DNA from: Spirochaetia bacterium
Lineage (GTDB): Bacteria > Spirochaetota > Spirochaetia > UBA9216
Assembly: GCA_963677925.2 (NCBI GenBank)
Contig: CAXXYH010000004.1
Coordinates: forward strand, 864,001-928,000
Direction of reading: 5' to 3'
DNA: 64,000 bases
Shown here: one piece after another, positions 7,844-34,391 of the stretch
Position numbering within the stretch: position 1 is the stretch's first letter
Layout of the letters: each line of letters opens with the position of its first letter
The notes under the pieces: generated by a model
Told to the model about the DNA's origin: nothing
The model's database searches: none
What the model saw: only the letters and a program-made list of their open reading frames with translations
Program-made: the position numbers and the translations under genes

Positions 7844-7859
7844 ATTACAATATTGAAAT
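7844..7859 (+). promoter_or_regulatory. Putative enhancer (UAS) for a sigma54 activator, ATTACAATATTGAAAT
   Basis: Identical 16-mer at 30351 and near-identical copy at 34203, each upstream of a sigma54 promoter. Confidence 0.7.
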
Positions 7860-7962
7860 TAAACAAGTATATAGACACTTTCGAATAATAAAATGCTAAT
7901 TTGTACCTTGGTAATTCTTTTGTCAATAACAATTTAAATTAAAAATTTAGAACGTAGTAGTT

Positions 7963-7978
7963 TGGCATACAGATTGCA
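7963..7978 (+). promoter_or_regulatory. Sigma54 (-24/-12) promoter TGGCATACAGATTGCA
   Basis: Exact GG-N10-GC spacing, upstream of the AAGGAG RBS and the ATG at 8022. Confidence 0.8.
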
Positions 7979-8021
7979 TTATATTTATATATAATTTATT
8001 TGGATAGCAAGGAGTTTTTCG

Positions 8022-9773
8022 ATGAAGAAGCTTTTTATTTTGTTTATATGTATTATTTCTATTTTCCCGGTATATAGTGATAATACGTTACATGGGTTAA
8101 GATTGATTTTTACCGATACTGAGGATACTGAGGATACTGAGGATACTGAGGATACTGGTGAAGCCGTGGAATCAACAATTGATTTCTTTAATTTACCAAA
8201 AAATTCTGATGGGTGGACAGATTATGAAGCTCTATTACAGTATGGCTATACTGATTCAAGAGTTGTATTTGTTTCATCACTTTATGGTGATGACTCAACT
8301 GGTGAAATTTATAGTAAATCAGATCTTACTTTTGATGAATATGGTATGTTTCAACCTGCTGTATCGGTTGATATTAAACCGTTTTTGACTATAAAAGCAG
8401 CATATTCATTTATAAGAAATGGTTATCCCGATATCATGCTTCTTAGTAGGGGGGAGCAGTGGGAGGAACAATTTAATACCTTAAGCATAGGTAGGATGAA
8501 GTCAGGGCGGAGTAATGTTGAAAGGCATATAGTCAGTTCCTATGGAAGTGGTGATAGACCATCATTACATAGCACAACTGAAAAACAACTAGATATTTAT
8601 CAAGCATCATATTTTATTTTATCTGGAATACATTTTTTTGCTGATGACTGGAATGAATCGGGGCGAGGTCTTGATTTATATGGTGCATCTGTAGATACGT
8701 TATTTGAAGATTTGAGATTTGATAAACATTATAAAAATAAAATTAGTGATCCTGGATTGATGAATGTTGTAATTCGGCGTTGTATTTTTACAGATTATGC
8801 TGCTCATGACGGAGTTTTTTATGTTAACAAAGTTGAAAATATTTTTTTTGAAGAAAATATTTTTTATAAACCGAGGGATGAGAGAGATAGCACGATTTAT
8901 GGTAGAATATTTTACTTAAATCCAGGTGATGGAATTAACTTAAATCAACTTAAGAATCTAACTGCTAAAGGAAATATTCTTTTTCTTGCAGAACGCGGCG
9001 GTGCTGATGCAAGAGCTGGAGGAACTTTCAATAACAATTTGTTCATACAAGCTGGTTGTAGTATGGCTGCTAATGGCGGCAGTGGTGGTTCTGTGGTTTC
9101 AGGTGTTGTAAAAAATAATGTTTTTACTCAAGGTACTGATAACCTTGGAGTTGGAGCAGGCCTTTCGATAAAAAATGGTGTTGGTGTTGTGGTCGAAAAT
9201 AATATCTGGACAGATCCAGAAGGTATCCTGTCAGAGGCTAATGCAATAACGGTCTCAGGTGATAGTTCATATGATCTTTATGTAGCAAAAAATATTGAGA
9301 TAACTGGAAATGTTATATATGGGTATAAAGGTGAAAATGTGTATAACAGAGGAATATTTATTCCTTCAGGCCTTAGGGACATCGAGAACTTTTCAATACA
9401 TAATAATGAAATTCAAATGGTAACTGGAGCTTCATCTGTTCTCGCCGTACCCACTGATGTTTTGCCAGATATTTCATTCATGAATAATAAGTATTTTAGT
9501 ACTACGCCGGAGATTGAATGGTTTTATCAAGGCGATTTGCTGGATTGGGAAATATCCTCTGGTGAGACTGGTGCTTCTAAAGAACAGGTTGGTTATTATG
9601 GTGCATATAGAAATTTAAAAACTTATAATAACTCTCTTGGGGGGAGTGCAGATACTGAGGATTTTATGCTTGAAACATTGAAACAGTCAAGAAACCATTG
9701 GGATGAAGTGTATACTGCAGGAGCTGTTAATGATTATATCCGTGCTGGGTTTAACTTAGAATTGATTCAATAG
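8022..9773 (+). CDS. Secreted right-handed parallel beta-helix protein (pectin-lyase-like fold, possible glycan lyase/hydrolase or surface protein)
   Basis: Signal peptide MKKLFILF..., acidic linker, repeated 'xxENNIF/NNVF/GNVIY/NNEIQ' beta-helix rungs. Confidence 0.65.
   Translation: MKKLFILFICIISIFPVYSDNTLHGLRLIFTDTEDTEDTEDTEDTGEAVESTIDFFNLPKNSDGWTDYEALLQYGYTDSRVVFVSSLYGDDSTGEIYSKSDLTFDEYGMFQPAVSVDIKPFLTIKAAYSFIRNGYPDIMLLSRGEQWEEQFNTLSIGRMKSGRSNVERHIVSSYGSGDRPSLHSTTEKQLDIYQASYFILSGIHFFADDWNESGRGLDLYGASVDTLFEDLRFDKHYKNKISDPGLMNVVIRRCIFTDYAAHDGVFYVNKVENIFFEENIFYKPRDERDSTIYGRIFYLNPGDGINLNQLKNLTAKGNILFLAERGGADARAGGTFNNNLFIQAGCSMAANGGSGGSVVSGVVKNNVFTQGTDNLGVGAGLSIKNGVGVVVENNIWTDPEGILSEANAITVSGDSSYDLYVAKNIEITGNVIYGYKGENVYNRGIFIPSGLRDIENFSIHNNEIQMVTGASSVLAVPTDVLPDISFMNNKYFSTTPEIEWFYQGDLLDWEISSGETGASKEQVGYYGAYRNLKTYNNSLGGSADTEDFMLETLKQSRNHWDEVYTAGAVNDYIRAGFNLELIQ
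8115..8157 (+). repeat. In-frame 9-bp tandem repeat (GATACTGAG)x4 + GATACTG encoding (DTE)n
   Basis: Directly visible perfect tandem repeat. Confidence 0.95.
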
Positions 9774-9859
9774 AAGTTAAAATAGGTAACTATTTGCTTT
9801 GATTAGTATTTATGTGACGAATTATAATTGAATATAAACTTTCTGTAAATAAATTTAGA

Positions 9860-9893
9860 CACAAAACTCAGACGTTAGAGTTTGGGTTTTGTG
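9860..9893 (+). terminator. Stem-loop downstream of the beta-helix gene
   Basis: CACAAAACTCAGAC...GTTTGGGTTTTGTG imperfect inverted repeat with G-U pairs. Confidence 0.45.
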
Positions 9894-10089
9894 AAATAAA
9901 TAAGTTCTGATTAGGACTAATTATTGGAACTCAAATTTTTCAGATAGGGCGTGTTAATTATTTAGTATAAAAATCTCTGTATATGGTGCAAGAAAAATAG
10001 CAAAAACATCAAAAATCTATTGTAAATTATGGATGTGAATGCGCACTATCTTAGTTTAAAAGAGTATATTTTTTTCTATCTGCTTCCTT

Positions 10090-10400
10090 TTTAAAGATGT
10101 TCGCTTGATAATTCTTTGCAAAAAGAATACCAAGATTGAGTGTGTATGCAGACAAGATTAAGAGATAAGCGCAAGCCTCTTCGAATTACCTGTAAATAGT
10201 TAGGACGCTCGCCATGAAAAATTTATTAAGATTCAGGAAGAAATTTACTTTAGATAAAGAATTTCATGATAATATCGTATAAAAAGCGGTTGAAAGACGC
10301 TTTGGGCTATCTAAAAGAAAATATAGACTATGATTAAAAATTGAATTTGATGTAAGCGAGTGTGAGTAGTATACACTTTTTAATGCTATATTTGAAAAAA
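10090..10400 (+). pseudogene. Heavily decayed IS5-like DDE transposase relic
   Basis: Translated scraps 'VYADKI', 'LGRSP' and 'AVERRFGLSKRKY' resemble IS5 'ADKIY / LGRP / EGKFG..KRKY' motifs. Confidence 0.45.
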
Positions 10401-10928
10401 TTATTTAAGGAAATGACTGAAGTCATGAATACGTATAAGATAGAATCAAATAATATTGCTTAAAATACTTTTTGGGCAAGATATAGAGATTATTGGTATG
10501 GCTTTAAGCTATAAATGATTTTTTAATTATATATTTAAAAATCAAGATAATATTCATTATATTTATGTTAATATTGTTAGATAATATTAATAAAGATTTT
10601 TATATATTTGAAAATATTGTTTCTGTATTATATGTTCTTTCAAAATAACTTTCTTATGCTAAGAATAAGGGGGTGGTATTTTTTATTCCCTTAAAATATA
10701 AAGTTACAATTTTGATAATGATGCACAAGATAATTATTATAATTAAAATGATGCAAAAAAAGGGTATTAGAGACAAAGACTGAATCGGAATACTATAAAA
10801 ACATATTTATTGGATGATAAGAAGCGGTCTTGTGATGATATAGATAGTTGTTGATATTTAGATGGGAAGTTTTCTGTATGAGTATAACATTATAATCCAT
10901 GTTTTATGTAAATTAGAAAGGAATTAAA

Positions 10929-11789
10929 ATGAGTAATTTGATGAAAAGGTTAGATATGCCTAAATCAGAATTTTTAGTTTTCTCTTCAATGGGAGATAGA
11001 GCAAATATAAAATATTGGCTAAAAGGTAATAGGAATTTTGATTTATGGGTTTGTTATTATGGTGATGATGGAAATAAATATATTGACTCTTCTGATTATT
11101 ATTTTAAAAGAAAGGGTGGAAAGTTTCCTAATTTGCATTATGTATATAATAACTGGAAGAATGAAATTGATTTTTATAAAGCCGTTTTTGTTATAGATGA
11201 TGATGTTATTCTTAATGGAACTAAGATTACCAATTTATTTAATATTTTATTTGACTACAAATTGTGGTTGATTCAACCAGCTTTCAATCCTCTTGGTAAA
11301 GTTAGTCATTATCTAACAATGGTTAAACCTTATACTAAGTTTAGGTATACCAATTTTGTTGAAGTTACTTGTCCTCTATTTTTAAAAAGTAAACTTGATG
11401 AATTTATGAATGTATATGATCCAGTGCTAGTTGGATGGGGCGTTGACCATTGGTTTATAAACAATTTAGGATCTGAAATAGCCAATAAAGTAGCAGTTAT
11501 TGATGAGATAACATGTATCAATCCTTTTGATTTCACAAAAAATAGTATTAATTTTCGTGGGAAAAGAGAAATCGATACATTGCAGAGTAAAAGCAAAAGA
11601 GTTGAGGTTTGGAAGGGTGTTAAAGCTAAATATAATATTAATGATATAAAAATAAAAGAAATAGGATATGAGCGTTTGTCTTTAAATTTGTATAATTTAA
11701 TAAATATTTTTTATTATTCTCTTCTTATTCTTTGTAAGTTAATCGCACGGAGAATTAGATCGACTTTTATCTATAAAAAAAGAAGATAA
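10929..11789 (+). CDS. DUF707-like putative glycosyltransferase
   Basis: FDLWVCYYGD, DDD, QPA, TNFVEVTCPLF and GWGVD motifs of the DUF707 family. Confidence 0.72.
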   Translation: MSNLMKRLDMPKSEFLVFSSMGDRANIKYWLKGNRNFDLWVCYYGDDGNKYIDSSDYYFKRKGGKFPNLHYVYNNWKNEIDFYKAVFVIDDDVILNGTKITNLFNILFDYKLWLIQPAFNPLGKVSHYLTMVKPYTKFRYTNFVEVTCPLFLKSKLDEFMNVYDPVLVGWGVDHWFINNLGSEIANKVAVIDEITCINPFDFTKNSINFRGKREIDTLQSKSKRVEVWKGVKAKYNINDIKIKEIGYERLSLNLYNLINIFYYSLLILCKLIARRIRSTFIYKKRR

Positions 11790-11839
11790 ATATTATATAT
11801 TTATAAACAATTTTTTAATTTCAGATAAAACTATTATAG

Positions 11840-12288
11840 GGCTCGCAATCCCTAAAACTGTACCATGAGATAGATTAGTTTTCTGTCACAATATACAATA
11901 GAGACTGAAATGAAGAGATGGTTTGCAGATGAACAGATTATTAAAAACCTGAATGAATACCAATCTACTCAAAGAGTAGATTTACATCGAAAAGGATGTA
12001 CAAGCGTAGTCACTTCCCGAGGCTTAAAATAAAAAGTGCGAAATATTTTAGGCACTACCCAAAATCTGGGAATCCGACTACGAATTGTCATATCGAGAGT
12101 ATTAATGGGATTTTCAGAAATAAATTGTCTGAATACAATTTATTTTAATAGCATTAAAAAATGGGGTGTTGAATAAAATGAAGAACGCCCACAAGAACGA
12201 TTAAAATGGGTGGCACCTTACCAGTATGAAGCAATAATAGATAGGCTGAAAACTATCCTTGGTAGTGGTCAGAAAATGGAGTGAGGTC
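11840..12288 (+). mobile_element. IS3-family relic (internally deleted)
   Basis: orfA-like start MKRWFADEQIIKNLNE (11910), orfB-like end 'NEERPQERLKWVAPYQYE', terminus ...GGAGTGAGGTCA. Confidence 0.6.
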
Positions 12289-12450
12289 ACAATAATAAAC
12301 GTGCATATCAAGGTCGTAATTTGAAAAGTTGAACACCATTAAAAGTGTTTATATAAGAAATAAAAATACAAGATGGTGAAGGCGTTTTTTACGAATAATA
12401 TAACATTATAACTTTCTATGAAAGTGTCAAGGAAGTACTAAATCATTGCA
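12289..12450 (+). mobile_element. Second IS481 3'-end relic
   Basis: 'NNKRAYQGRNLKS*TP' and GTGTCAAGGAA end, homologous to 7540-7690. Confidence 0.6.
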
Positions 12451-12727
12451 GCATAATAAATTGATAGTCATCAGTTGGGTTAAAAAGACTCAAATGGAAA
12501 GTTAAGAATGCCTAAAAATCTTTGAGAACTACAGTGGATTTAAAAAAATATAAAATCTGTTTTGAATAAATGACAGAAATCATGAATAGGTATAAAATAA
12601 ATCAGACAGGGGAGTAAGAAATTAGCAAACCCTATATAGTTAGATTAACCAGAAAATCTTTAAGGAATATTTTTTATTCAAAAATTATAGAAGTGAAATC
12701 TGTAAAATAGTGGAGATTTAATAACAA

Positions 12728-13708
12728 ATGAAAGAATTAATTTCTATAGTCGTGCCAATTTTTAATGTCGAGTTGTATTTACCAAGATGTATTGATTCCT
12801 TGATTAATCAAACATATAAAAATATTGATTTAATCCTCGTTGATGATGGGTCTCCTGATCGTTGTGGTGAAATTTGTGAAAATTATCAATTTATAGACCA
12901 TAGAATACAAGTTATTCATAAAAAAAATGGGGGTCTTTCTGATGCTAGGAATGTAGGGATAAAAGCTGCAAGAGGTAATTATATCACATTTGTAGATAGT
13001 GATGACTGGGTCGTTCCGGATTTTATTGAATATCTCTATATGAATCTCAAGAAATTTGAAACGGATATCTCCATTTGTAATTTCTGTAAAACATCAACAT
13101 ATCCTTTTGAACCAGAATCCAATAAAAAAGAAATTGTTGAAGTTTTAGATAGTATTAGTGCTCTACGCCAACTAAACGGGAGGAATGGTGTAAATTTAGT
13201 AAGTGCTTGGGCTAAAATTTACAAGAAAGAGCTTTTTAATGACATACTATTTCCTATTGGGAAAATACATGAAGATGATTTTATATCATATAGAATCATT
13301 AGTAAAGCCAATACCATCTGTATAAGCAATAAGATAGGCTTATTGTATTGGCAACGAGAAGGCAGTATTACAGCTTCTAATGATATAGTAAGTAGAATAC
13401 ATAAATTGGAAGCATCAATTGAGAGACTCGATTTTTATTGTAGCTTGATGGATATAGGATTAATCTCACAAGGAGCAAGAAGTGTTTTTCATAATTTTAT
13501 TAAATATGAAAAATATCGGCAGGAAATGAAAATTAAAGATAAAACTTTCTCTAAAAAGTTGATACGCTTAAGAGTTAGGCAATCAAAGCAATCTATCTTT
13601 TTTAAGCTTTTTTATGAGTTTTATTTTATTACACCACACATAGGATACTTGATATATGAAATAATTATAAATCCGATCTTTTTAAAACCAAAATATAGAG
13701 GTAAATGA
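12728..13708 (+). CDS. Glycosyltransferase family 2 (EpsJ-like)
   Basis: ISIVVPIFN, VDDGSPD, NGGLSDARN, FVDSDD, HEDD. Confidence 0.92.
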   Translation: MKELISIVVPIFNVELYLPRCIDSLINQTYKNIDLILVDDGSPDRCGEICENYQFIDHRIQVIHKKNGGLSDARNVGIKAARGNYITFVDSDDWVVPDFIEYLYMNLKKFETDISICNFCKTSTYPFEPESNKKEIVEVLDSISALRQLNGRNGVNLVSAWAKIYKKELFNDILFPIGKIHEDDFISYRIISKANTICISNKIGLLYWQREGSITASNDIVSRIHKLEASIERLDFYCSLMDIGLISQGARSVFHNFIKYEKYRQEMKIKDKTFSKKLIRLRVRQSKQSIFFKLFYEFYFITPHIGYLIYEIIINPIFLKPKYRGK

Positions 13709-13845
13709 ACCCTCTTCTATTATTAGGGATTAAATTTAACTAATAAGATAGATGTTTAACGAAGTTATAGTCGAACTGAAAAAGAATAGGAATTGGCATT
13801 AAAAAAATAATATCAGAGGATATAAATCCTAATGGTGAGGTAAAT

Positions 13846-14853
13846 ATGAATATTATCAACATTGGAGTCTTTGCATATAATGAACAGGAAAACATTGCAA
13901 ATATAATTAACGATTTAGATCTTCAATCTGTAATGACAAACGGATTGTTCCAATTGAGTGTACAAGTTTTATGTAATGGTTGTACAGATAAAACTGTACC
14001 GATTGCGATAACTTCCGTAGAAAGATGTAAGAATATAAACAAGTTTACTGAGGTTAAAGATTATAAAGTTGGAAGTAAATCAATAACATGGAACAAATTT
14101 ATAAATTCTAATATTGAAGGTTCTGATTTTATAATCTGTATTGATGGAGATATTCGTATTCATGATCAAGATGCAATAATTAATTTGATCCATGATTTGG
14201 ATAATAGTAATTCTTATGCTTTGACTAGTAGACCTATGAAAAAATTAGATAAATTAAATAGAAAACCTTTATTGAAAGTTGCTACAAAAATAGCCGGAGC
14301 AGAACATGTTGATGGAAAAATCTGTGGGCAGTTTTATGCAGTAAAAACTGATAATATAAACAATATTCAATTACCAAATCCTTGCCTTGTTGAAGATGGT
14401 TTTTTAGCTGCTTGCTTGATAACAAGCTTATTTACACATGAAGGGGATCCTAAACTAATAAAAGCTAGTCAAAGTGTTTGTCATGAATTTGAAGTGCCTG
14501 GATCATTAAAAGAATTTTTTTATCATGATGTACGTATATTATTAGGGTGTGAGCTTAACGCAGCTTACTATTCTTTTTTATGGGAAGCCACAGATGTTAA
14601 AGAGAGAATTGAAATTTTAAATAGTTTTTCAAAATCGGATAAGATTAATGATTGTATAGAAGAACATTTAAAACATCCTGAAAGAAGTGCTTTGAAGAAA
14701 CAAAAATATTTCGATTTTCTTTTTAGAATAAGAAGCGAAAATATGCTGATTAAAATAGCAAAACTGCCAATCAGATTTTTGTATGTTGTCTATATAAATG
14801 CTGTTAAGGGAAGAGCGAAAAGGCTATTCATAGAACGTACCTTTTTTTGGTAG
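13846..14853 (+). CDS. Glycosyltransferase family 2
   Basis: FAYNE, NGCTDKT, IDGD, GQFYA, VEDG motifs. Confidence 0.8.
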   Translation: MNIINIGVFAYNEQENIANIINDLDLQSVMTNGLFQLSVQVLCNGCTDKTVPIAITSVERCKNINKFTEVKDYKVGSKSITWNKFINSNIEGSDFIICIDGDIRIHDQDAIINLIHDLDNSNSYALTSRPMKKLDKLNRKPLLKVATKIAGAEHVDGKICGQFYAVKTDNINNIQLPNPCLVEDGFLAACLITSLFTHEGDPKLIKASQSVCHEFEVPGSLKEFFYHDVRILLGCELNAAYYSFLWEATDVKERIEILNSFSKSDKINDCIEEHLKHPERSALKKQKYFDFLFRIRSENMLIKIAKLPIRFLYVVYINAVKGRAKRLFIERTFFW

Positions 14854-15482
14854 TGAGAATGGCTTGGTTTTCCTTAAATACTTAATGAGCTTATAAATTA
14901 AGGTAAATGTAAAATCATTCAAACATTTTAAAATAATAGAAATAGTCATTGTTGTATTATTTTTTCCAAAAAATATTTTATAATTGGAGGCTCTTATTCT
15001 AAAATATGAATGTGAATTATACAAATAGAAGAGCACTTATTGATTGTATCAATTTAATTAAGTTGTTAGATGTGCTATAAAGAGATCTTATATTCATTAC
15101 CTTATGAAGAAGATCGGTTCTGATGGGGTGAATGTTATAAAAGATCTGAGGATACAAAGATAAACAAGCAGATTAATTCAGTTGGAATATAGATTCCACA
15201 GCAAACCAAATTGAACTTAAAAAAACAAAACTAAGAAGTTTACTGTTTGAAAATAATTTTTATAGTATTTATTTCTTATGTTTATCTTGACGAAATGAAT
15301 TGTAGAATTTGTTCGAAAATGCTGTTAATCTTAGCTATTGTATAGTTTCAGTTTAATGTATTGAGCTTATCGGATTAGTTCATTATATTCAGAGGGATTC
15401 AAGCTATCAATAATCCGTGTTTTAGATATCTATGACAAATTGTAATACGTCAAATTATTAAACAAATTAGCTGAGGTCGCAA

Positions 15483-16388
15483 ATGGGAAAGATTGATGTA
15501 TCAATAATAATACCTTCATACAATTCTGAAGATGTACTAATAAACACATTAAAATCAATAGAAGAGCAAAAGACAAACAATGTTTTTGAAATAATTATTA
15601 TTGACTCATCACCGTCAGATAATGTTCAAAATGTATGTAAGAATAACAAAAGGATTCAGTTTATAAAGCTGAAGGAGAAAACCCTGCCTGGAATCGCCAG
15701 AAATATCGGTGCAGAACATGCAAAAGGAGAGGTTCTGATATTCTGTGATGCCGATGTATTACTACAGGAGGATGTAGTAACAAAAGTCTGGGAATTCTAC
15801 TCAAAAGGTCATAAGGCTTTTGGAGGAGCACTTATCCTTGCAGAAGGTTCTTCACTGCCAGTAGGATTGCTTGAACATTATTTCTATAATCATGAATCTC
15901 AAAAAGAGCGGCCTGTATCAAAGAGAAGTAATCTTAGTTCAGCCCTAATGATAGTGGATCGAACCTTATTTATTGAACAAGGCGGCTTTAAAAATATACC
16001 AAGAATGCAGGATACTGAATTTACTGAAAGAATATCTCGTAATGGAGCAGTTCTTATGTTTACTCCTGAAGTTGTCGGGTGTCAGCGACAAATCACTACC
16101 TGGAAAGGATTAAATCGAAAAGTATTTCTTTGTGGACACAATCTGTATTTTATTAGGTATAAGCAGAATATATCAACTAAGAAAAAAATCTTGTTGATAC
16201 TCGGGTTGCCGTTTCTATCCATTTTAAAAATGAGTAGAATAAACTTGCGGAATATAGTTTATACAACACCTTTTGGTCGTATTAAAGCCCTTTTTTGGAC
16301 ACCAGTTATGTATTATTTAGGTTTTATTTGGATGTCTGGATTTTACAAAGGTATTATCAGAAATAGAGGAATTAGTTTAAATAGATAA
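15483..16388 (+). CDS. Glycosyltransferase family 2
   Basis: VSIIIPSYN, IDSS, ARNIGA, FCDAD, GGF...QDTEF. Confidence 0.88.
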   Translation: MGKIDVSIIIPSYNSEDVLINTLKSIEEQKTNNVFEIIIIDSSPSDNVQNVCKNNKRIQFIKLKEKTLPGIARNIGAEHAKGEVLIFCDADVLLQEDVVTKVWEFYSKGHKAFGGALILAEGSSLPVGLLEHYFYNHESQKERPVSKRSNLSSALMIVDRTLFIEQGGFKNIPRMQDTEFTERISRNGAVLMFTPEVVGCQRQITTWKGLNRKVFLCGHNLYFIRYKQNISTKKKILLILGLPFLSILKMSRINLRNIVYTTPFGRIKALFWTPVMYYLGFIWMSGFYKGIIRNRGISLNR

Positions 16389-16507
16389 AAATATACAGAA
16401 ATAAAAATGTGATTAAACTTAATACGTGTGATAATATACTATGTTTAATAATGCATAATATTGTAAAATATAAATCTGTTAGAGGATATCATTAATAGAA
16501 CAATAAT

Positions 16508-22075: not shown

Positions 22076-22194
22076 ATTGGAAAAATTTAGACAGGATTAC
22101 CACCTGCTATTTTAAATTATTTGAATCTTTCTTAAAAACTTTGAATTTAGTGTATAATTATAAACAGTAAAAAAATTCAGGTGAAGGTAAAAAT

Positions 22195-25275: not shown

Positions 25276-25287
25276 AGGAGCAGTCGT

Positions 25288-27264
25288 TTGTGCGGGATTA
25301 CAGGAATACTCAAGCCGGGACCGGCAAAAGAACTTAAAGCGGAAATCGAAAAATTAATTCCCTATATTGAGCATCGCGGACCTGACGGATGGGGCAGTTA
25401 CGGGGCTCCTGGGATTGCACTCGGGCACCGCCGTCTCTCTATTATTGATCTGAGTCTTGGAAGTCAGCCTATGGTGTCCGGAAATTCAGTAATAACCTTT
25501 AATGGTGAAATTTATAATTATCTGGAACTCAAAAAAGAGCTTGAATCACTTGGTGTGCTTTTTGAAACTAACAGTGATACTGAAGTTCTTCAGAAAGCAA
25601 TAGATTTCTGGGGAGATTCCGCTTATAGCAGGCTAAACGGACAGTTTGCTCTACTTCACTGGGATAAGAAAAGAAGAATATTAACTGCAGTACGGGACAG
25701 GTACGGAATTAGACCTTTATATTTTATGAAAACTGAAGGCGGCTGGTATTTTTCTTCAGAGATGAAGATTTTTGATCATATAGGCAGTCGAAAACGGTTC
25801 TGGAATCCTGAGAATCTGCTTGAGCATGGGCTTATCTGGAATACTTTGGGCGATTCCACAGTATACAGTAACATCTGCTCGCTTGAAGGCGGCTGTTTCC
25901 AGAAGTTCAGTGATGAAGGAACTTCCGGTCCGAAAAGATACTATGTTCTGGGGCAGGATGCTGGTGCAATGCTTACGGAAGCTCCAGATGTTTTGGCCGA
26001 AATCTTTCGCGAAAAGCTTTCAGAATCTGTCAAACTTAGGCTTCGAAGTGATGTTCCTGTTGGCTGTTACCTCAGCGGCGGGATTGATTCATCGGTAACC
26101 TCTTATCTTGCAAAGAAAATCAATAACAAATCATTTAAGAGTTTTTCAGTAACTTTCAGCGATCCATCCTTTGATGAGTCTGAATTCCAGAAGATAATGG
26201 TAAATTCGCTGGGGTTCGATCATTATTCTGTGAATATCGATGGCAAAGCTGTAGAAAATAATTTTTATAATGCGGCGAAACACTTTGAGAGGCCTGTTTT
26301 CAGGACAGCTCCGGTGCCGCTTTTTCTTCTTTCAGAGAAGGTTCGTGAAACTGATGTAAGGGTAGTGCTCACTGGTGAGGCTTCAGATGAAATTCTGTTT
26401 GGTTATGACACCAACAAGGAGCTTAAACTTCTTTCACTCTGGAAAAAAGGTTTGAGTGAGGAGGAGATTACAAAGATTCTCCTGCAGCTTAATCCGCATC
26501 TTGACCATTACAAAGATAAAGAGCAGGTTGGTTTTTTAAAAATGTACTACGAGGGTTTCCTGGATCGCTTTCAAAGTCCTCTTGGTGGACTGGTTATGCG
26601 AATCAGTAATAATCAGGTGTTAACCAATATATTTAATAAAGAATGGGGTCTTTCTTTCAATTTCAACAACCTTGCGGATAAAGTGGATTCATTGACTCCG
26701 CCACACGTTAAGCAGTGGGGCATATATCAGAAAAATCAATTCTGGGAGATGAAGACTTTGCTTTCCGGGTATCTTCTCTCTGCACAGGGAGACAGGATGG
26801 CGATGTCTCATGGTATTGAGGGCCGTTTTCCCTTTCTTGATCATAACCTCATTGAATGGCTGATGACTGTTCCTACAGATGTAAAAATAAATGATTTCTC
26901 AACAAAACATCTGCTTAAGGATGCTTTCAGGGATGTTATTCCGGAACCAATAATAAATAGGCCTAAAAGACCTTATACAGCACCCGACATAGCGTCATTT
27001 TTTCCTGGCGGCAGACGTGGAGAACTTGTGAAAAATTATTTAAATAGTGATATAGTGAGAGAGTACGGGATTTTTGAACCTAAAATGGTAGAAAGATTGA
27101 TTTTTAAAATAGAACGTCGAGGTCTTGAATCTGCGGGATACCGTGATAACATGATGACAACTTATCTGCTTTCCTCTCAAATTGTTGAAAGTCAAATCAG
27201 AAATCCTGAAATAAAAATTGTTGATTACTCGAATCAGACAGTGAGTGTGCTAGAGGAGTATTAA
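25288..27264 (+). CDS. asnB: Asparagine synthase (glutamine-hydrolysing)-type amidotransferase
   Basis: N-terminal MCGI, HRGPD, HRRLSIID, NGEIYN, RDRYGIRPL, LSGGIDS, GEASDE, RFPFLD; AAAGGAG RBS before TTG. Confidence 0.92.
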   Translation: MCGITGILKPGPAKELKAEIEKLIPYIEHRGPDGWGSYGAPGIALGHRRLSIIDLSLGSQPMVSGNSVITFNGEIYNYLELKKELESLGVLFETNSDTEVLQKAIDFWGDSAYSRLNGQFALLHWDKKRRILTAVRDRYGIRPLYFMKTEGGWYFSSEMKIFDHIGSRKRFWNPENLLEHGLIWNTLGDSTVYSNICSLEGGCFQKFSDEGTSGPKRYYVLGQDAGAMLTEAPDVLAEIFREKLSESVKLRLRSDVPVGCYLSGGIDSSVTSYLAKKINNKSFKSFSVTFSDPSFDESEFQKIMVNSLGFDHYSVNIDGKAVENNFYNAAKHFERPVFRTAPVPLFLLSEKVRETDVRVVLTGEASDEILFGYDTNKELKLLSLWKKGLSEEEITKILLQLNPHLDHYKDKEQVGFLKMYYEGFLDRFQSPLGGLVMRISNNQVLTNIFNKEWGLSFNFNNLADKVDSLTPPHVKQWGIYQKNQFWEMKTLLSGYLLSAQGDRMAMSHGIEGRFPFLDHNLIEWLMTVPTDVKINDFSTKHLLKDAFRDVIPEPIINRPKRPYTAPDIASFFPGGRRGELVKNYLNSDIVREYGIFEPKMVERLIFKIERRGLESAGYRDNMMTTYLLSSQIVESQIRNPEIKIVDYSNQTVSVLEEY

Positions 27265-27266
27265 TT

Positions 27267-27509: not shown

Positions 27510-27518
27510 GCGAAGTGC

Positions 27519-27818
27519 ATGGAAAAATTATTCTTTACCTGACTAAGCAGTGTTAGTTTTAAAAAAGATGACGGCTGCTGGCTTGATTTATATTATAAGA
27601 ATATCAATTTGGTTTCGCGGAAAATAGCTGTAATATTCGAAGATAGGAGAATTTCATATAGGAAACTTGATTATCTTGTAAACTGGTTTTTCGACAAAAT
27701 ACGCAGTTTATATTCATCCGGGACTCTGTTTGCAGGCATTTTTACAAAATATTCCAATTTGATGCTTGCAGCTAATTTTCTAAGGAATTATGTATGGAAT
27801 CAACATTTTATAAGATAA
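27519..27818 (+). pseudogene. Truncated duplicate of the 5' end of the NRPS-PKS A domain
   Basis: CWLDLYYKN...KIAVIFEDRRISYRKLDYLVNWF...GIFTKYSNLMLAA aligns with CWLDLFYKN...KIAVIFENRYISYRELDLLSNWF...GIHLKRSHIMLAA (from 16565). Confidence 0.8.
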
Positions 27819-27950
27819 CGGGCTTTCTATCAATTAATCAAAAAACTTAATGTGAAAAGTAATAAAAAGGCTCTCTCTATCAAAATCTCTATAAAAAGAC
27901 TTTGTCTCTAAATATAACGTTGTTTTTTCAGAGTGACTATTGTAAAAAAG

Positions 27951-29253: not shown

Positions 29254-29877
29254 TTAGAAAATAGAAGCAATGTCATTTATATAAATTGTAATCCCGATAC
29301 TAGTATTATTTCCAATTCCTGTATCAATGACAGTCTGATATTCCGGATCTGAAATAGTTGACTCGCCGTCAACTACTGTTTCGCTACTGGAATAAATAAA
29401 ACTAGCACTTAAACTGTATTCAGCGAAGGCTGATATAAAAGAATTAAAAAAGATTTCAATTCCAAACAAAGCCTCAGCACCGAACGGAATCTCGGAAAGT
29501 ATTACATAATTTATTTCATCAGTTATAGTGCTCTGTGTTATATAACCTCCGTTTATTGAAAAGCCCCAATAAGGGGAAAGCCGGCTGACATTTAAAAAAT
29601 GATTTTCATATGTGATTCCTGCAATTGAGGAAAAGGTATTAAAGTTATTTGAATAGTAGATATCTATAAGTGTGCGAAGCGATGACACCTCATTAAATCG
29701 ATATTTCATGCCTACCCCTCCTTGGTAGCTTTCAATATCAAGAAGAAGGTTTTCTGCATTAAAGATAAATCCTAATGTACCCTTATCTGGAATTGACTTC
29801 TCTTCATTTGCGAAACATAAATTTATTACAAATAAAAGAATAAATGTTGATATAAATATTACTTTTTTAAACATCAT
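29254..29877 (-). CDS. Putative outer-membrane beta-barrel protein (start moved to the ATG after AAGGAG)
   Basis: Signal peptide, alternating hydrophobic/Gly-rich strands (GVGMKYRF, GIEIFF..AFAEY, GITIY). Confidence 0.6.
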   Translation of the reverse strand: MMFKKVIFISTFILLFVINLCFANEEKSIPDKGTLGFIFNAENLLLDIESYQGGVGMKYRFNEVSSLRTLIDIYYSNNFNTFSSIAGITYENHFLNVSRLSPYWGFSINGGYITQSTITDEINYVILSEIPFGAEALFGIEIFFNSFISAFAEYSLSASFIYSSSETVVDGESTISDPEYQTVIDTGIGNNTSIGITIYINDIASIF

Positions 29878-29888
29878 AAACTCCTTGT

Positions 29889-30293
29889 TTATTGTGAACC
29901 AATCCAATTAAGATACCATCCAGTTATAGGGTCAGCCGATTTGTCTAGAGAGGAATGAAGTTCTGAAATGGAATCATCATTATATTGAGCTGCTACTCCA
30001 AAATCATATATTCCATAATCAAGGATGTCTTTAGAAATCGAAATTTCAACTGTTTTTCCATCTGGTGTATTCTTTAAAAAAGTCCAGGTAGTAGCATTAT
30101 GAAATTTATAATATATTTTATAGCATTTAATGGATGAGGATTCATTGGGTATAGTTATCTCATTATTATCCCAGGCTAATGTGAATCTCTCTGAACGTAT
30201 GATAATTTCTGTTGCACTATCATTATATTCGAAAAATTGACAGGCTGTTGTGAAAGTTAATATTAAGATTATTATGAAAACTTTTTTGTCCAT
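29889..30293 (-). CDS. Lipoprotein with a single FN3-like domain ending in HxSxDxxADPxxGWYxxW
   Basis: Lipobox FTTAC; TLAWD..YKIYY..W..YDFGVAA FN3-like pattern; homologous to the C-terminus of 34392-35366. Confidence 0.65.
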   Translation of the reverse strand: MDKKVFIIILILTFTTACQFFEYNDSATEIIIRSERFTLAWDNNEITIPNESSSIKCYKIYYKFHNATTWTFLKNTPDGKTVEISISKDILDYGIYDFGVAAQYNDDSISELHSSLDKSADPITGWYLNWIGSQ

Positions 30294-30350
30294 TGCAATT
30301 AAACTTAACACTTTAAGAGTAAAACATCAATTTAGTGTGTCAATATTTGA

Positions 30351-30366
30351 ATTACAATATTGAAAT
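30351..30366 (+). promoter_or_regulatory. Putative enhancer (UAS) ATTACAATATTGAAAT
   Basis: Identical to 7844-7859; 109 bp before the sigma54 promoter at 30460. Confidence 0.7.
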
Positions 30367-30459
30367 ATAAATATTTTTCAGATATTGAATTTAAATGTAC
30401 TTATAAGTTAAATAGTTATCCTATAGTAAATTAAATGTAACATGCAATATACTTTAGCA

Positions 30460-30475
30460 TGGCACGCTTCCTGCT
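30460..30475 (+). promoter_or_regulatory. Sigma54 promoter TGGCACGCTTCCTGCT
   Basis: Consensus TGGCACG, GG-N10-GC spacing, upstream of the AAGGAG RBS and the ATG at 30508. Confidence 0.82.
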
Positions 30476-30507
30476 TATATAAATGATATCCATTTAAGGA
30501 GCAGGTT

Positions 30508-31503
30508 ATGAAACCATTATTTAAAAATAAAAAAAGTTTGAAATTAGCAATTCTGGTTTTATTATTCTCATCATTGGCTCTTACAAGCTGTAACCTTTCA
30601 TATTTTGGTATAAGCAGCAATGATGAAGGAGCGATGAGGCTTGAGATTTCAATAAACAGTTCAAGAACCGTATTACCGGGCTCGGATACTGAAATATCCT
30701 ACTATGAAATTACCGGAACCGGTCCCAATGAAAATGAATTCACCCAGACATCAACCGGAACTGAAATTTATATATATGATCTTGCTGTTGGTGAGTGGAA
30801 TGTCTCGATCACCGCTATGAGCAGCGATGACTATGAATTAGGTTTCGGTGAAACAACTGTTATTGTACAGGCCTCTGAGCAGTCGGATGCCTCGGTGACA
30901 GTTTTGCCTTTTGAGGGTACAGGCGCTCTGGCTCTTTCTGTTCTATGGGATGAAGAAGATGTCAGCAGTCCTGAAATTACTGCGGTTCTCAGGAATTCTG
31001 CAGGCGTAGAACAGGACCTGACATTTTCAGTAGGTGCATCATCAGCTACCTTTCAGGATGATGAGATTAATTCAGGTTATTATACCTTAAGTATTCAGAT
31101 GAAAAAGAATGGAACGGTCGTTTCAGGCATCGTTGAAGCGGTAAGGATCATGCAGAACTACATGACTACCGGAAATTTCAGTTTCGAGGATATCAATAAC
31201 CCAACCGGAGATATTGCGTTAACAGTAATAGTTGAAATGGATGAACCTCTGGAGCCTGTTATTTCTGGTGCTGAAGAAACTATAGCTTACGGCTCAATTA
31301 TGACTGTGACAGCATCTGTAATTGATGATGGCGGTGATACCATTGTTTTTTCATGGTTTGTAAATGGAAGCCTTGAAGGGGAAGGTGAGTCAATTACATT
31401 CGGTTCCGATTTAAGATGGGGTACATACAGGCTTGATCTGGTTGCCAGTACAAGCGATGGAAGCCGTTCCGGTTCTGTATCACATACTTTTACGGTGGAG
31501 TGA
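30508..31503 (+). CDS. Lipoprotein with tandem Ig-like beta-sandwich domains
   Basis: Lipobox LALTSC; acidic beta-rich repeats; N-terminal two thirds homologous to 34392-35366. Confidence 0.7.
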   Translation: MKPLFKNKKSLKLAILVLLFSSLALTSCNLSYFGISSNDEGAMRLEISINSSRTVLPGSDTEISYYEITGTGPNENEFTQTSTGTEIYIYDLAVGEWNVSITAMSSDDYELGFGETTVIVQASEQSDASVTVLPFEGTGALALSVLWDEEDVSSPEITAVLRNSAGVEQDLTFSVGASSATFQDDEINSGYYTLSIQMKKNGTVVSGIVEAVRIMQNYMTTGNFSFEDINNPTGDIALTVIVEMDEPLEPVISGAEETIAYGSIMTVTASVIDDGGDTIVFSWFVNGSLEGEGESITFGSDLRWGTYRLDLVASTSDGSRSGSVSHTFTVE

Positions 31504-31630
31504 GCGAGCGTCGCATGACAGCTTGCTGACGCATGGCTGAGCGAACGAACACCGCCGCGAAGCGACAGTGGAGTAGACATATTATATAGTGTTGCAAAAG
31601 GGGCTTACTTATAAAAAGTTAGCTCCTTTT

Positions 31631-33046
31631 CTATTTGTTCTGTCTCCAGCTTTCATGAGTTATTCCAAAACGTTTGACTTTATAATTCAGAACTCTGCTT
31701 GATACATTCAGTAGTTCTGCCGCATCTTTCTGAACCCAGCTTGAACGTTCAAGTGCCTGAAGTATTAAGTTTTCTTCCACTTCCTCAAGACAGACGCCCT
31801 GTTCAGGGAGAATAATCCCTGATTCTGAAGAAGTATTTTTAGGTTCTGCGGAAGGTGTTTTACTTATGATTTTATGACGTCTATTGAAATGCAGTTCAAG
31901 TTCTTCGGGTGTAATGATATCACCTTCAGTCATAAGAACTACCCGTTCAATTGTATTTTCAAGCTCTCTTATATTTCCCGGCCAGCTGTAATCCATCAGC
32001 ATCATAAGTGCTTCCCTGTGTACTCCCCGAATACGTCTGTTTACCGAAAGTGAATACTTTCTTACAAAGTGATGGACCAATAGTCTTATGTCATCCTTCC
32101 GTTCGCGTAAAGCAGGTAGGTGTATGCTTACAACGTTTAGACGGTAATACAGGTCCTCACGTAAATCTCCGTCTTCCATCATCTGAAGAAGATCCTTGTT
32201 AGTTGCTGAAATTATACGGGTATCGGTTTTTATTGTTTTATTACTGCCTACTCGCTCGAATTCTCTTTCCTGGAGTACTCGAAGTACTTTCGCCTGGGTA
32301 TACATGCTCATATCAGCTACTTCGTCCAGAAATATCGTTCCGCCATCTGCCTGCTCAAATCTACCGACTCTTGTCCTGTCAGCACCTGTGAATGCTCCCC
32401 TTTCATAACCGAATAGTTCACTTTCAAGCAGGGTTTCAGGCAGCGCAGCGCAGTTTACCTTTACGAAGGGTTTCTTTGACCTGTCACTGTTGTAGTGAAT
32501 AGACCCGGCAATCAGTTCTTTTCCGGTTCCTGTCTCTCCTGTAATAATTACACTTGATCTGCTTTTCGCCACTCTGTTCACAATGTGAAATATTTTTTTA
32601 ATTTCAGGGCTCTGACCGATGAAGTTGGAAGGCTGATAGTTACTCTGGAATTTACTCTGATTTGATTCAAGTGTCTGTTCCTGGCTTCTTTTTTCGAGCG
32701 CTTTTTTTATCTGGAAAACAAGCTCAGGAATGTTAATCGGCTTTCTTAAAATGCCGTAAGCACCCTCTTTTACCGCTCTGACAGCCTCATTTACGCTGTC
32801 TATATCAGTATGTACAAGTACAACGGTAGTGGGGTCCTGGTCATGTGCTTCTTTAATGATTTCTTTTACTGAACCGTTCTGAAATTTGACAGTTGATATT
32901 ATCAGATCGAAATGATTTGTACTGATTAAATCTATCGCCGTATCAAAATCAAGAGCATATTCTATCTGAGTACCGGCACTTTTCAGGTATCCGGATATAT
33001 CGTTGCAGAGATTCTCGTCCTTATCAATAAATAACAAATTTTGCAT
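31631..33046 (-). CDS. Sigma54-dependent enhancer-binding protein (NtrC-like) with atypical receiver domain
   Basis: [40 protein letters not shown], Fis-type HTH; receiver reads [10 protein letters not shown] (Thr at the phospho-Asp position). Confidence 0.93.
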
Positions 33047-33095
33047 ATACTTTCATAAAACAGTACCATTTTTTATATTAGATGTCTATTTAACA

Positions 33096-33111
33096 ATTAC
33101 AGTAATGTAAC
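33096..33111. promoter_or_regulatory. Palindromic version of the UAS box (TTACA-GTAA-TGTAA) between the divergent activator and HD-GYP genes
   Basis: Same TTACA-N4-TGWAA geometry as 7844, 30351 and 34203. Confidence 0.55.
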
Positions 33112-33179
33112 TGGGCAATTGATGTCCGTAATTCTTTATCATATAATGAATTTACACTGAAGGATTTCTCAGGAGAAAA

Positions 33180-34202
33180 GTGATGTCCGAGCATTCAAGA
33201 ATACAGAAACTAAAAGAAATCTCATTTTTTGATGAGGTTGCAGAACAGGATCTGAAAGAAATAGCAGCAATAACTGTGGAAAAGAGCTATGACAGCGGTG
33301 AAATAATCATTGAAGAAAACAGCAGGGCAGAAACCTTCTTCATTATCCACAAGGGGAAAATCGAAATTCTTAAGAAATTTGAGGATGGTGAAGAGGTTAT
33401 TCTTGGGATGTACAGCGACGGGGAGTTTTTCGGTGAGATGGCCATCCTTGATGAGGGACCCCGGTCAGCTACCGCTAGAGCTGTTGATTCAACTACAGTG
33501 ATGGAAGTTTCTTATAAAGATTTTGAGAAAGTCCTGGGTGTTGTTCCGCAGATAGCTTATTCAATAATGAAAGAGCTTAGTACCCGTTTGCGGCAGACAG
33601 GAGCCCTGCTTGTCTGGGAGCTGAAACGTAAAAACCGGGAACTTGCTGAGGCTTCATATAAAACCGTTAAATCAGTTATGAATGTGATCGAGGAAAGAAC
33701 CCCGTACATGACAGGACATGCAGAGTCTGTTGCTGCACTGGCCAGGACAATCGGAAAGAATCTTGGTCTTGATGATGAGGAGCTTTATCAGATGCAGATT
33801 GGATGCCTTCTTCATGATGTTGGTATGATTGGAGTTGGAGAAAGCATTCTTTTGGATAAGAATACCGTAGATTCTGATTCTTTTGAACAGATACAGCAGC
33901 ATGTAATTCATGGAAAACAGATGATAGAAAATATCGAATATCTCAAGCCGATGATTCCACATGTGCTGTATCATCATGAAAGATATGACGGTTCTGGGTA
34001 TCCTGAAGGTTTGAAAGGCGATTCCATCCCTTTCTCTGCTAGGATTATTGCAGTTGCTGATGTTTTTTCTGCGCTTATAAGTGACAGGCCGCATAGAAGC
34101 AGGATATCAGAGAAGGATGCTGCCACATTTATAAAAGAATCTGCCGGAATTATGTTTGATCCGGTTATTGTAAAATCATTTCTTCAAACTCTTAAAACTT
34201 GA
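33180..34202 (+). CDS. Cyclic-nucleotide-binding (cNMP) + HD-GYP c-di-GMP phosphodiesterase
   Basis: cNMP motif FFGEMAIL..GPRSATARA; HD-GYP motifs LHDVG, HHERYDGSGYP, IAVAD, RP. Confidence 0.9.
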   Translation: MMSEHSRIQKLKEISFFDEVAEQDLKEIAAITVEKSYDSGEIIIEENSRAETFFIIHKGKIEILKKFEDGEEVILGMYSDGEFFGEMAILDEGPRSATARAVDSTTVMEVSYKDFEKVLGVVPQIAYSIMKELSTRLRQTGALLVWELKRKNRELAEASYKTVKSVMNVIEERTPYMTGHAESVAALARTIGKNLGLDDEELYQMQIGCLLHDVGMIGVGESILLDKNTVDSDSFEQIQQHVIHGKQMIENIEYLKPMIPHVLYHHERYDGSGYPEGLKGDSIPFSARIIAVADVFSALISDRPHRSRISEKDAATFIKESAGIMFDPVIVKSFLQTLKT

Positions 34203-34218
34203 ATTACAACATTGAAAC
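34203..34218 (+). promoter_or_regulatory. Putative enhancer (UAS) ATTACAACATTGAAAC
   Basis: 14/16 match to the boxes at 7844 and 30351; 140 bp before the sigma54 promoter at 34343. Confidence 0.65.
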
Positions 34219-34342
34219 TTGAATACAGATCTGTATAGAGAATTTCAGGAATTAAATCGTAATATTCATATCATGCATTCTTGATTTTTGTTAAGTCATT
34301 ATTATGTATATATTTATCCTCCTTAGTTGTGATGTTGGGGTT

Positions 34343-34358
34343 TGGCATGCTTATTGCT
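34343..34358 (+). promoter_or_regulatory. Sigma54 promoter TGGCATGCTTATTGCT
   Basis: GG-N10-GC spacing; lies before the GGAGG RBS and the ATG at 34392. Confidence 0.8.
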
Positions 34359-34391
34359 GATATACCCAGATATCCTTTTTTGGAGGGGAAT

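Follow-up and report, generated by a model that had tools for sequence, protein, structure and literature searches.

The locus described here raises the question of whether three genes for exported proteins, each preceded by a sigma-54 promoter and by a copy of the same short sequence, form a single regulon under an activator encoded among them. The locus lies in a window of 64,000 nucleotides (G000:C4:864001-928000), which is the whole stretch of DNA analysed, in the genome of a Spirochaetia bacterium (G000; 5,044,142 bases in four contigs, 41-43% G+C). With good confidence, the window can be read as containing a compact sigma-54 regulon, in which a neighbouring bacterial enhancer-binding protein (bEBP) would use the shared sequence as an enhancer box and co-regulate two Ig-like lipoproteins and a beta-helix protein. 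The features on which this reading is built are the following.

7841..7859, plus strand: enhancer box 1, TGGATTACAATATTGAAAT, with the core ATTAC-N6-GAAAT, one mismatch from ATTAC-N6-GTAAT
7963..7978, plus strand: sigma-54 element TGGCATACAGATTGCA, 119 bp past the box start and 44 bp before the ATG at 8022
8022..9773, plus strand: target 1, a secreted protein of 583 amino acids (aa) at the head of an AT-rich glycan and polyketide synthase-nonribosomal peptide synthetase (PKS-NRPS) locus
30348..30366, plus strand: enhancer box 2, TGAATTACAATATTGAAAT, one of the three genome copies
30460..30475, plus strand: sigma-54 element TGGCACGCTTCCTGCT, 109 bp from the box start
30508..31503, plus strand: target 2, a 331-aa lipoprotein (lipobox LTSC) of a Spirochaetota-restricted family with putative Ig/PKD-like domains
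31631..33046, minus strand: the bEBP, 471 aa (PF00072, PF00158, PF02954), with a degenerate receiver, an AAA+ domain carrying GAFTGA and a Fis-type helix-turn-helix (HTH)
33180..34202, plus strand: an HD-GYP protein with a domain for binding cyclic nucleoside monophosphates (cNMP; PF00027, PF13487), a conserved divergent neighbour of the bEBP
34200..34218, plus strand: enhancer box 3, TGAATTACAACATTGAAAC, beginning at the stop codon of the HD-GYP gene
34343..34358, plus strand: sigma-54 element TGGCATGCTTATTGCT, 140 bp from the box start
34392..35366, plus strand: target 3, a 324-aa lipoprotein (lipobox VSSC), paralogous to target 2 over its N-terminal two thirds and FN3-like at the C-terminus

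An earlier, sequence-only reading of this DNA had described these promoters and boxes and the distances of 119, 109 and 140 bp between them, and all are present in the window letters where it had placed them. The boxes share one orientation and read ATTACAATATTGAAA at the copies starting at 7844 and 30351 and ATTACAACATTGAAA at the copy starting at 34203. In each of the three promoters, the GG and GC doublets are exactly 10 nt apart, only one of the 11 specified positions of TGGCAC-N5-TTGCW is mismatched, and a start codon with a Shine-Dalgarno-like sequence follows 33-44 nt past the -24/-12 element. The 15-mer ATTACAAYATTGAAA has exactly three matches on both strands of the genome, at 7844, 30351 and 34203, against a zero-order expectation of 0.07 copies, and an independent repeat finder grouped these copies, and no others, into a family of 19 nt, TGRATTACAAYATTGAAAY. 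Sites with at most one mismatch to TGGCAC-N5-TTGCW number 72 genome-wide on both strands; an exact box lies within 200 bp upstream only at these three, and two others have just box look-alikes with three mismatches upstream. The looser TTACA-N4-TGWAA, which had been proposed for a genome-wide scan, has 91 matches and is non-specific when used alone. The palindromic form TTACA-N4-TGTAA has 28 matches, which correspond to 14 sites, and the perfect dyad TTAC-N6-GTAA occurs at 96 sites, no more than composition predicts.

The components of a sigma-54 circuit are encoded in the same genome. There is a single match to the rpoN family (PF04552, E 2.1e-56), located in a 484-aa open frame, and 21 bEBPs with a full sigma-54 activation domain are encoded. 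Two of the three boxes lie at most 1.3 kb from the gene of the bEBP studied here, one on each side; a comparison of coordinates places a strong -24/-12 element within about 3 kb of several other bEBP genes as well. The bEBP itself matches the Pfam families Response_reg, Sigma54_activat, AAA_lid_14 and HTH_8. Its AAA+ sigma-54 interaction domain (PF00158, E 2.4e-73) retains intact Walker motifs and the ERGAFTGA sequence, and its C-terminal Fis-type HTH (PF02954, E 3.2e-11) occupies residues 420-460. The third sequence feature, dyads in the position of an upstream activating sequence, is found 108-139 bp upstream in this genome and 54-260 bp upstream at the loci of orthologues. Everything by which a sigma-54 promoter, a bEBP and its upstream activating sequence are recognised in sequence is consequently present.

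The link between the box and the neighbouring bEBP is addressed most directly by comparison with other genomes. When matches at E <= 1e-118 are taken as orthologues, the bEBP occurs in 28 of 401 Spirochaetia genomes, at 45-96% identity; paralogues begin near 43%, and the remaining 373 genomes have no match at that threshold. In 29 non-redundant loci (118 kb), 18 perfect TTAC-N6-GTAA dyads were counted, compared with 1.6 +/- 1.2 (maximum 6) in shuffled sequences. Most of them lie 72-155 bp before a sigma-54-like element, ahead of a homologue of target 2 or 3 that adjoins the bEBP gene. A sigma-54-like element with at most two mismatches and a dyad 54-260 bp upstream of it was found in the DNA fetched from 24 of the 28 orthologue genomes, where the dyad was allowed at most one mismatch, except in G020 with GTAC-N6-GTAC, and where G389 is counted from its target-1-homologue locus, 28 kb from its bEBP orthologue. 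Stricter pairs, in which the dyad is perfect and the sigma-54 element has at most one mismatch, occur in 12 genomes. The genes behind these promoters are mostly homologues of target 2 or target 3. Once flanking bases are included, the site common to the family reads ATTAC-N6-GTAAT. Among the other lineages G206 is the closest, with a bEBP that is 71% identical; it has the gene order of the window and GAAA-type boxes, TTACATCTTTGAAA at 130 bp and ATACAATATTGAAT at about 150 bp. G263 has a perfect -24/-12 element with TTACAATATTGTAA at 104 bp and TTACAATATGGTAA at 134 bp from it. In the bEBP, the HTH with its C-terminal tail, WVQKDAAxLLxISxRxLNYKIKxFGITHxxWxQN, hardly varies among 29 orthologues and does not resemble the HTHs of the 20 other bEBPs in the genome studied.

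A composite pattern (perfect dyad, N55-115, TGGYAY-N5-YTGC) gave three matches in five whole genomes and none in the reversed control; two of the three adjoin a bEBP orthologue, and the third stands beside a different bEBP gene. At positions 1501-1640 of a locus in G206 (L077, G206:C17), a perfect TTACATATAAGTAA was noted 122 bp before TGGCATAGTGTTTGC, between the gene of a different bEBP with receiver, AAA+ and HTH domains and that of a large membrane protein. Several lineages of bEBPs in Spirochaetia, and not just one, may use dyads that resemble TTAC-N6-GTAA.

A finer comparison is offered by a sister species of the same genus (G001), whose bEBP is 96% identical and which is syntenic over 29273-35536 at 86% identity, the glycan locus excepted. 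The identities between the two species are distributed as follows.

Promoter of target 2: box 17/18, spacer 47/92, -24/-12 element 17/18, leader 31/31 identical
Promoter of target 3: box 16/18, spacer 75/123, -24/-12 element 16/18, leader 29/32 identical

The spacers are thus only 51-61% identical, and their length is nearly unchanged. With the opening T of TTAC as the starting point, the distance to the promoter is 108 bp in G000 and 109 bp in G001 at target 2, and 139 bp in both at target 3, where the spacer has two compensating 1-bp indels. The substitutions in the G001 boxes (ATTACgATATTGAAA, ATTACAAgATTGAAA) are confined to the central N6. The different glycan locus of G001 also carries a sigma-54 element, TGGCATATATTTTGCT, with TTACAAATTTGAAA 129 bp and TTACCGTTTTGAAA 110 bp upstream, which precedes a gene for a 591-aa secreted protein followed by a GT2 glycosyltransferase gene. 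No homology between this protein and target 1 was detected by BLASTP (E 0.36) or hhalign (probability 2.3%). A short motif, G-[ND]-DSTG ... PFxTIxAA, is common to the two by eye and is presumably typical of beta-helix N-termini. The proposal that the adjacent bEBP binds the box and co-regulates the three genes is supported both by the co-occurrence across genomes and by this phylogenetic footprint.

The mechanism suggested by these elements would be the following. At the three -24/-12 elements, sigma-54 RNA polymerase would wait in a closed complex. The bEBP would bind as dimers, through its C-terminal Fis-type HTH, to the 16-bp dyad ATTAC-N6-GAAAT, 108-139 bp upstream, assemble into an AAA+ ring and contact the polymerase by looping the AT-rich spacer. 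The promoter would then be opened through ATP hydrolysis and the GAFTGA loop. The genes switched on in this way would be those of the two paralogous Ig-like lipoproteins flanking the regulator and of the secreted beta-helix protein, which heads a strain-variable glycan locus 22 kb away.

The 133 bp that separate the bEBP gene from the divergent HD-GYP gene contain a further potential binding site, as the sequence-only reading had noted. It is a perfect match to the core of the family dyad and lies close to a putative promoter.

33097..33110, no strand assigned: perfect palindrome TTACAGTAATGTAA (TTAC-N6-GTAA) in the bEBP/HD-GYP spacer
33119..33147, plus strand: sigma-70-like promoter TTGATG-17-TATAAT before the HD-GYP gene, a consensus match from a scan that as a whole did no better than on shuffled sequences

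The palindrome ends 8 bp before the sigma-70-like -35 hexamer and would probably let the regulator control itself, the HD-GYP gene or both. The spacer is identical at 130 of 133 positions in the sister species and is consequently constrained as a whole, with no footprint specific to the palindrome. A perfect dyad occurs in this spacer in two of 14 lineages (this genus and G180) and a one-mismatch dyad in two, with none in ten. A role of TTACAGTAATGTAA as an autoregulatory or HD-GYP control site is plausible in this genome, but it is not a family trait.

Several observations weigh against the regulon as described. The boxes match nine of the ten specified positions of ATTAC-N6-GTAAT, the deviant arm being GAAA rather than GTAA, and they are also one mismatch from TACA-N4-TGTA, so that another bEBP could in principle recognise them. 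One clear dyad per promoter is present, compared with two dyads 24-32 bp apart at many orthologue loci. No dyad-bearing sigma-54 element was found around four of the 28 orthologues, on the short contigs of G038 and G388, in 3.2 kb of G091 and in 20 kb of G180. A third Ig-like lipoprotein paralogue of the genome (C4:1731979-1732599, plus strand) has neither a sigma-54 element nor a dyad upstream, and the regulon does not comprise every member of that family. Finally, target 1 has homologues in six of 400 other genomes, and only G389 has the full arrangement of dyad and sigma-54 element; there, the gene of a homologous 663-aa lipoprotein is preceded by a perfect TGGCACAATTATTGCT, and TTACAAATTTGTAA stands 247 bp before that element. 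The corresponding locus of G349 has a sigma-54-like element without a dyad, and no sigma-54-like element paired with a dyad was found upstream at those of G143, G171, G206 and G324. The exact box in G000 and the analogous promoter in G001 make membership of the beta-helix gene well supported within the genus, and family-wide it is occasional.

The spacing of the boxes has been taken as a sign that activator and polymerase meet on one face of the helix. Counted from the T that opens TTAC up to the T of TGGCA, the distances are 108, 118 and 139 bp, which agree to within 0.05 turn at 10.5 bp per turn. The most durable alternative accepts the box as an enhancer and regards the whole-turn differences of 10 and 21 bp as coincidental and not selected, and it is a possibility of some weight, although still the less probable of the two. 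Only three distances are available, and 2.9% of random triples (70-160 bp, with a helical repeat of 10.3-10.6 allowed) are as tightly phased, within an arc of 0.06 turn (P ~0.03). The distances of the orthogroup (54-260 bp) have no common phase, which counts for coincidence but would also be expected if each promoter had its own bend; two proteins of the HU/IHF family are encoded in the genome. Adding the 129-bp site of the sister species gives four distances within 0.05 turn (P ~0.005), but this value requires a choice between two candidate sites, the alternative at 110 bp being about 0.2 turn off. Independent support for phasing comes from the spacer lengths, which are kept between the two species (108/109 and 139/139) despite 39-49% sequence change, compensating indels included. 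Dependence on the face of the helix is, moreover, established for NtrC-type activators. The phasing proposed by the sequence-only reading is modestly supported for the three distances of the window and does not extend to a phase common to the family; as a feature of these promoters it is probable, not established.

Two side observations concern the same spacers. A TGKTAAKT-like motif occurs at 7909-7916, 30407-30413 and 34289-34296 (plus strand), 53-54 bp before the T of TGGCA, so that the variable part of the length falls between the box and this motif (56, 66 and 87 bp). It could be a candidate bend or HU/IHF-type site, weak as such a motif is in AT-rich DNA. Upstream of the target-2 promoter by 44 bp, TTATCCTATAGTAA (30416-30429, plus strand) is one mismatch from TTAC-N6-GTAA. 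Its counterpart in the sister species (L021, about 14055, minus strand) keeps the arms (TTAT...GTAA) with a changed centre, and it may be a second, promoter-proximal site.

A second alternative holds that the box is functional but bound by another regulator, either a bEBP of nitrogen control (C4:1011929-1013470, by amtB, or the NifA-like protein by nifH) or a factor outside the bEBP family. Dyads of the TACATTWATGTA type (TACA-N4-TGTA) lie 88-217 bp before strong sigma-54 promoters at C4:1013542, C4:2476243, C4:2249736, C4:735170, C3:1294484 and C3:245349, and the distance is 88-154 bp at five strong promoters elsewhere in the genome. The genes behind them encode an ammonium transporter (amtB, with the dyad TTACATTTATGTAA), nifH, ABC transporters and an aminotransferase, and genes for NifA/NtrC-like bEBPs adjoin; these promoters probably constitute the nitrogen regulon of this spirochaete. 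The resemblance to this class gives the alternative its substance, since the boxes are equally one mismatch from TACA-N4-TGTA and from TTAC-N6-GTAA and the palindrome at 33097 fits both patterns. The two classes differ, however, in what they conserve: the nitrogen class keeps TACA...TGTA, and the class studied here keeps TTAC...GTAA with a variable fifth base. In the sister species, position 5 of the boxes changes (TTACG, TTACC), which breaks TACA and leaves TTAC intact, and in 24 genomes the TTAC-N6-GTAA dyads accompany bEBP orthologues and lipoprotein targets, not nitrogen genes. Because of this variable base and the linkage across genomes, the boxes are assigned to the neighbouring bEBP. 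The HTHs of the nitrogen-type bEBPs (ITERKMGLRVAKY, LTNRMIGVRMQKY) are also unlike that of the protein encoded at 31631-33046, and control of the box by another regulator is improbable.

It is less credible still, to the point of being highly improbable, that the shared 19 nt have no regulatory role and were left behind by a promoter cassette that duplicated or by a small mobile element, or match by chance; targets 2 and 3 are indeed paralogous, so that their promoters may share ancestry, and an IS481 transposase fragment lies 300 bp before box 1, but the similarity is limited to 19 nt with unalignable flanks, target 1 is unrelated to the other two, the box is a conserved island amid diverged spacers in the sister species, the dyad recurs in distant genomes, and the three copies of the box exceed the 0.07 expected by chance.

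In the regulon under the neighbouring bEBP, the next question is what signal the activator might receive. When its receiver is aligned to that of Aquifex NtrC1, Thr52 occupies the phospho-acceptor position (LIIS-T vs VVLL-D), and the acidic pair reads D-K-D vs E-D-D, with a Lys within the pair. Of 29 orthologues, 17 have D at this position and the other 12 have T, N, Q, S or E. Among the proteins searched for a kinase, 28 from the window and 11 encoded beside distant orthologues, none matched HisKA or HATPase; the search did not extend to the rest of the genome. The bEBP consequently lacks the phospho-acceptor Asp, the acidic pair and the nearby kinase of a response regulator, and because the phospho-acceptor is absent, it is read as not being a canonical two-component response regulator. 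The input would then be something other than classical phosphorylation. The description of the system as self-contained is accordingly apt for the regulator and its targets but not for the input, as no sensor was identified.

One candidate for the sensory partner is the HD-GYP protein. It matches PF13487 (HD_5, E 1.2e-38), carries the motifs LLHDVG and HHERYDGSGYP, and is predicted to be a cyclic di-GMP (c-di-GMP) phosphodiesterase. Its gene adjoins that of the bEBP divergently in 14 of the 29 non-redundant orthologue loci. Receivers without the Asp occur in seven of the 14 loci linked to an HD-GYP gene and in four of the 15 unlinked loci, a difference that is not significant and that comes from related genomes, which are not independent. 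The HD-GYP protein folded together with receiver residues 1-125 scored 0.38 (runs 0.39, 0.38, 0.36) against 0.00 for the best of three controls, with a partner pLDDT (predicted local distance difference test) of at least 84 and 100% contact agreement between runs, which supports a link between the two weakly. The pass mark of this test was reached by 116 of 157 solved complexes and two of 215 mismatched pairs, but passes with scores of at most 0.60 comprise 18 of the 157 solved complexes and both passing mismatches. A pass in this range is wrong more often than right, unless the pairing was already likely on other grounds. Fused proteins of receiver and HD-GYP domains exist, and the pass may reflect a memory of such structures. 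That the bEBP is a phosphorylation-independent activator with a pseudo-receiver, to which the HD-GYP protein signals by contact or through a local c-di-GMP pool, is a speculative and rather unlikely proposal. If it were true, cyclic-nucleotide signals and not a histidine kinase would set the sigma-54 control of an Ig-like lipoprotein coat and a glycan locus in free-living Spirochaetia. More generally, repeated loss of the phospho-acceptor and the conserved neighbour with cNMP-binding and HD-GYP domains suggest an unstudied input route.

In G263, G399 and G292, a dyad-bearing sigma-54 promoter beside the HD-GYP gene was observed to precede a gene for a protein of about 220 aa (L067 11754-12428, minus strand; homologues in L068, L070 and L071). 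Of these, only the L067 copy was compared with Pfam, where it resembles a cNMP-binding domain weakly (E 3.8e-5, short of the Pfam cut-off), and no homologue of this protein was found in the genome studied.

The three target products carry N-terminal signal or lipoprotein-type sequences, as read by eye. In target 1, the signal sequence is followed by an acidic (TED)n linker, the source of which is a 9-nt tandem repeat, GATACTGAG, at 8106-8171 (plus strand). No Pfam or NCBIfam match to target 1 was obtained, even at E 5. Its language-model neighbours all belong to right-handed beta-helix clusters (scores 0.93-0.95), and its family profile matches the lacto-N-biosidase chain 6kqs (E 0.0013); judged from these neighbours and weak profile matches, it is probably a right-handed beta-helix. 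Targets 2 and 3 are paralogous (27% identity over 226 aa, E 8e-22), and no Pfam or NCBIfam model covers their family. No stretch of the family alignment was conserved enough to serve in a search for related loci, and a scan with a single protein returned the sister species and nothing else. The nearest language-model clusters contain Spirochaetota hypothetical or Ig-like proteins, and the C-terminal domain has a weak PKD match (E 2.8e-4), which together point to an Ig-like fold. Two further genes are located next to target 2.

29889..30293, minus strand: small lipoprotein with homology to the FN3-like domain at the C-terminus of target 3 (tblastn E 1.8e-11)
29254..29907, minus strand: 217-aa protein that begins with a signal sequence, ends in Phe and has no Pfam match; its gene follows that of the small lipoprotein

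The small lipoprotein gene is divergent from target 2, with its ATG about 55 bp from box 2. No -24/-12 element was seen on its strand; homologues at other loci (L046, L071, L075) sit behind promoters with a sigma-54 element and a dyad. The 217-aa protein is possibly a small outer-membrane barrel, by eye, and can be named as a regulon member only as a candidate.

Downstream of target 1 on the same strand, at 32% G+C, are genes for GT2 glycosyltransferases, a hybrid PKS-NRPS pair at 16508-25275 (plus strand; A-KS-AT-PCP-TE and C-A-PCP) and an asparagine synthase homologue. The locus is interrupted by gaps of 0.6-1.2 kb without a coding-strand open reading frame (ORF) of at least 45 aa (9774-10928, 11790-12727 and 14854-15482), which may represent decayed genes or separate promoters. 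Given these gaps, the glycan genes at 10929-27264 may or may not be co-transcribed with target 1. Scans of the window for sigma-70 promoters and terminators performed at or below the level of shuffled sequences and were not used to define operons, and a search of the whole window against Rfam found no RNA families. At 27621-27690, downstream of the asparagine synthase gene and with no long ORFs around it, a stretch of 70 nt is 71% identical to the start of the first PKS-NRPS gene and may be a relic of another adenylation gene. At the edge of this strain-specific AT-rich locus, about 300 bp before box 1, a 101-aa ORF at 7230-7535 (plus strand) is a transposase fragment, which corresponds to a central part of the IS481-family profile NF033577 (E 1.1e-11, positions 174-231 of 284).

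The regulon under the neighbouring bEBP provides a defined operator, ATTAC-N6-GTAAT, together with a regulator orthogroup and a target set for a sigma-54 circuit of Spirochaetia. The target set would comprise Spirochaetota-restricted Ig-like lipoproteins, small FN3-like lipoproteins and beta-helix proteins heading variable glycan loci. To our knowledge, the Borrelia Rrp2 pathway has been the main sigma-54 circuit studied in this class. No description of the regulon, the dyad or the lipoprotein family was found in the open literature, including the accessible portion of PMC12316311, subscription journals being outside the scope of the search. The target set fits the proposal of Francke et al. 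2011 (PMC3162934) that control of the cell exterior is the main role of sigma-54.

Four known systems are available for comparison. The sequence-only reading had likened the locus to PrsR, and the likeness is thematic, a sigma-54 bEBP tied to exopolysaccharide loci and secreted protein families. Identity with a PrsR/exosortase system was rejected: the PrsR model TIGR02915 gives the bEBP 362.7 bits, short of its cut-off of 502.6, and is outscored by another model, and the absence of an exosortase from the window extends to the whole genome (99.63% complete), which has no match to PF09721. No PEP-CTERM tail was seen by eye on the targets, which end in ...NLELIQ, ...HTFTVE and ...IDWQAP, and TIGR02595 is not among the NCBIfam matches. 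There is also no adjacent PrsK-like kinase here. With FleQ and VpsR, atypical members of the bEBP family that regulate exopolysaccharides in response to c-di-GMP, the system shares an N-terminal receiver-like domain without reliance on phosphorylation, targets at the cell surface or in the matrix, and genes of c-di-GMP metabolism in its genomic surroundings, in this case the HD-GYP neighbour. It differs from them in keeping GAFTGA and true -24/-12 promoters. FleQ binds c-di-GMP through an Arg-Asn after Walker A, a position that is Gly-Ser in the bEBP studied here, as judged by eye.

In Borrelia burgdorferi, the Rrp2-RpoN-RpoS pathway likewise joins a spirochaete bEBP and sigma-54 to the ultimate control of surface lipoproteins. 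Rrp2 acts at one promoter (rpoS), and an enhancer site is not needed. Here, in contrast, the HTH is highly conserved, and it is the structural genes themselves that have dyads upstream. A single bEBP-like match was obtained in small genomes of this class, which is consistent with the Rrp2 lineage. The closest parallel is NtrC (NRI) at glnAp2 of enteric bacteria, a bEBP with the same order of receiver, AAA+ domain and Fis-type HTH, an architecture confirmed here. NtrC uses dyad sites about 100-140 bp before the sigma-54 promoter, acts by DNA looping and has sites near its own operon. Its dyad is TGCACC-N5-GGTGCA, whereas the dyad here is ATTAC-N6-GTAAT; the bEBP lacks the phospho-acceptor Asp and a linked kinase gene, and its targets would be surface lipoproteins and a glycan locus rather than nitrogen genes. 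The NCBIfam ntrC models score it at 391.9 against a cut-off of 558.6. The regulon is consequently new and well-delimited, and its type is already known: by analogy, the circuit would work like an NtrC-type enhancer/sigma-54 switch in an otherwise standard arrangement of bEBP and upstream activating sequence.

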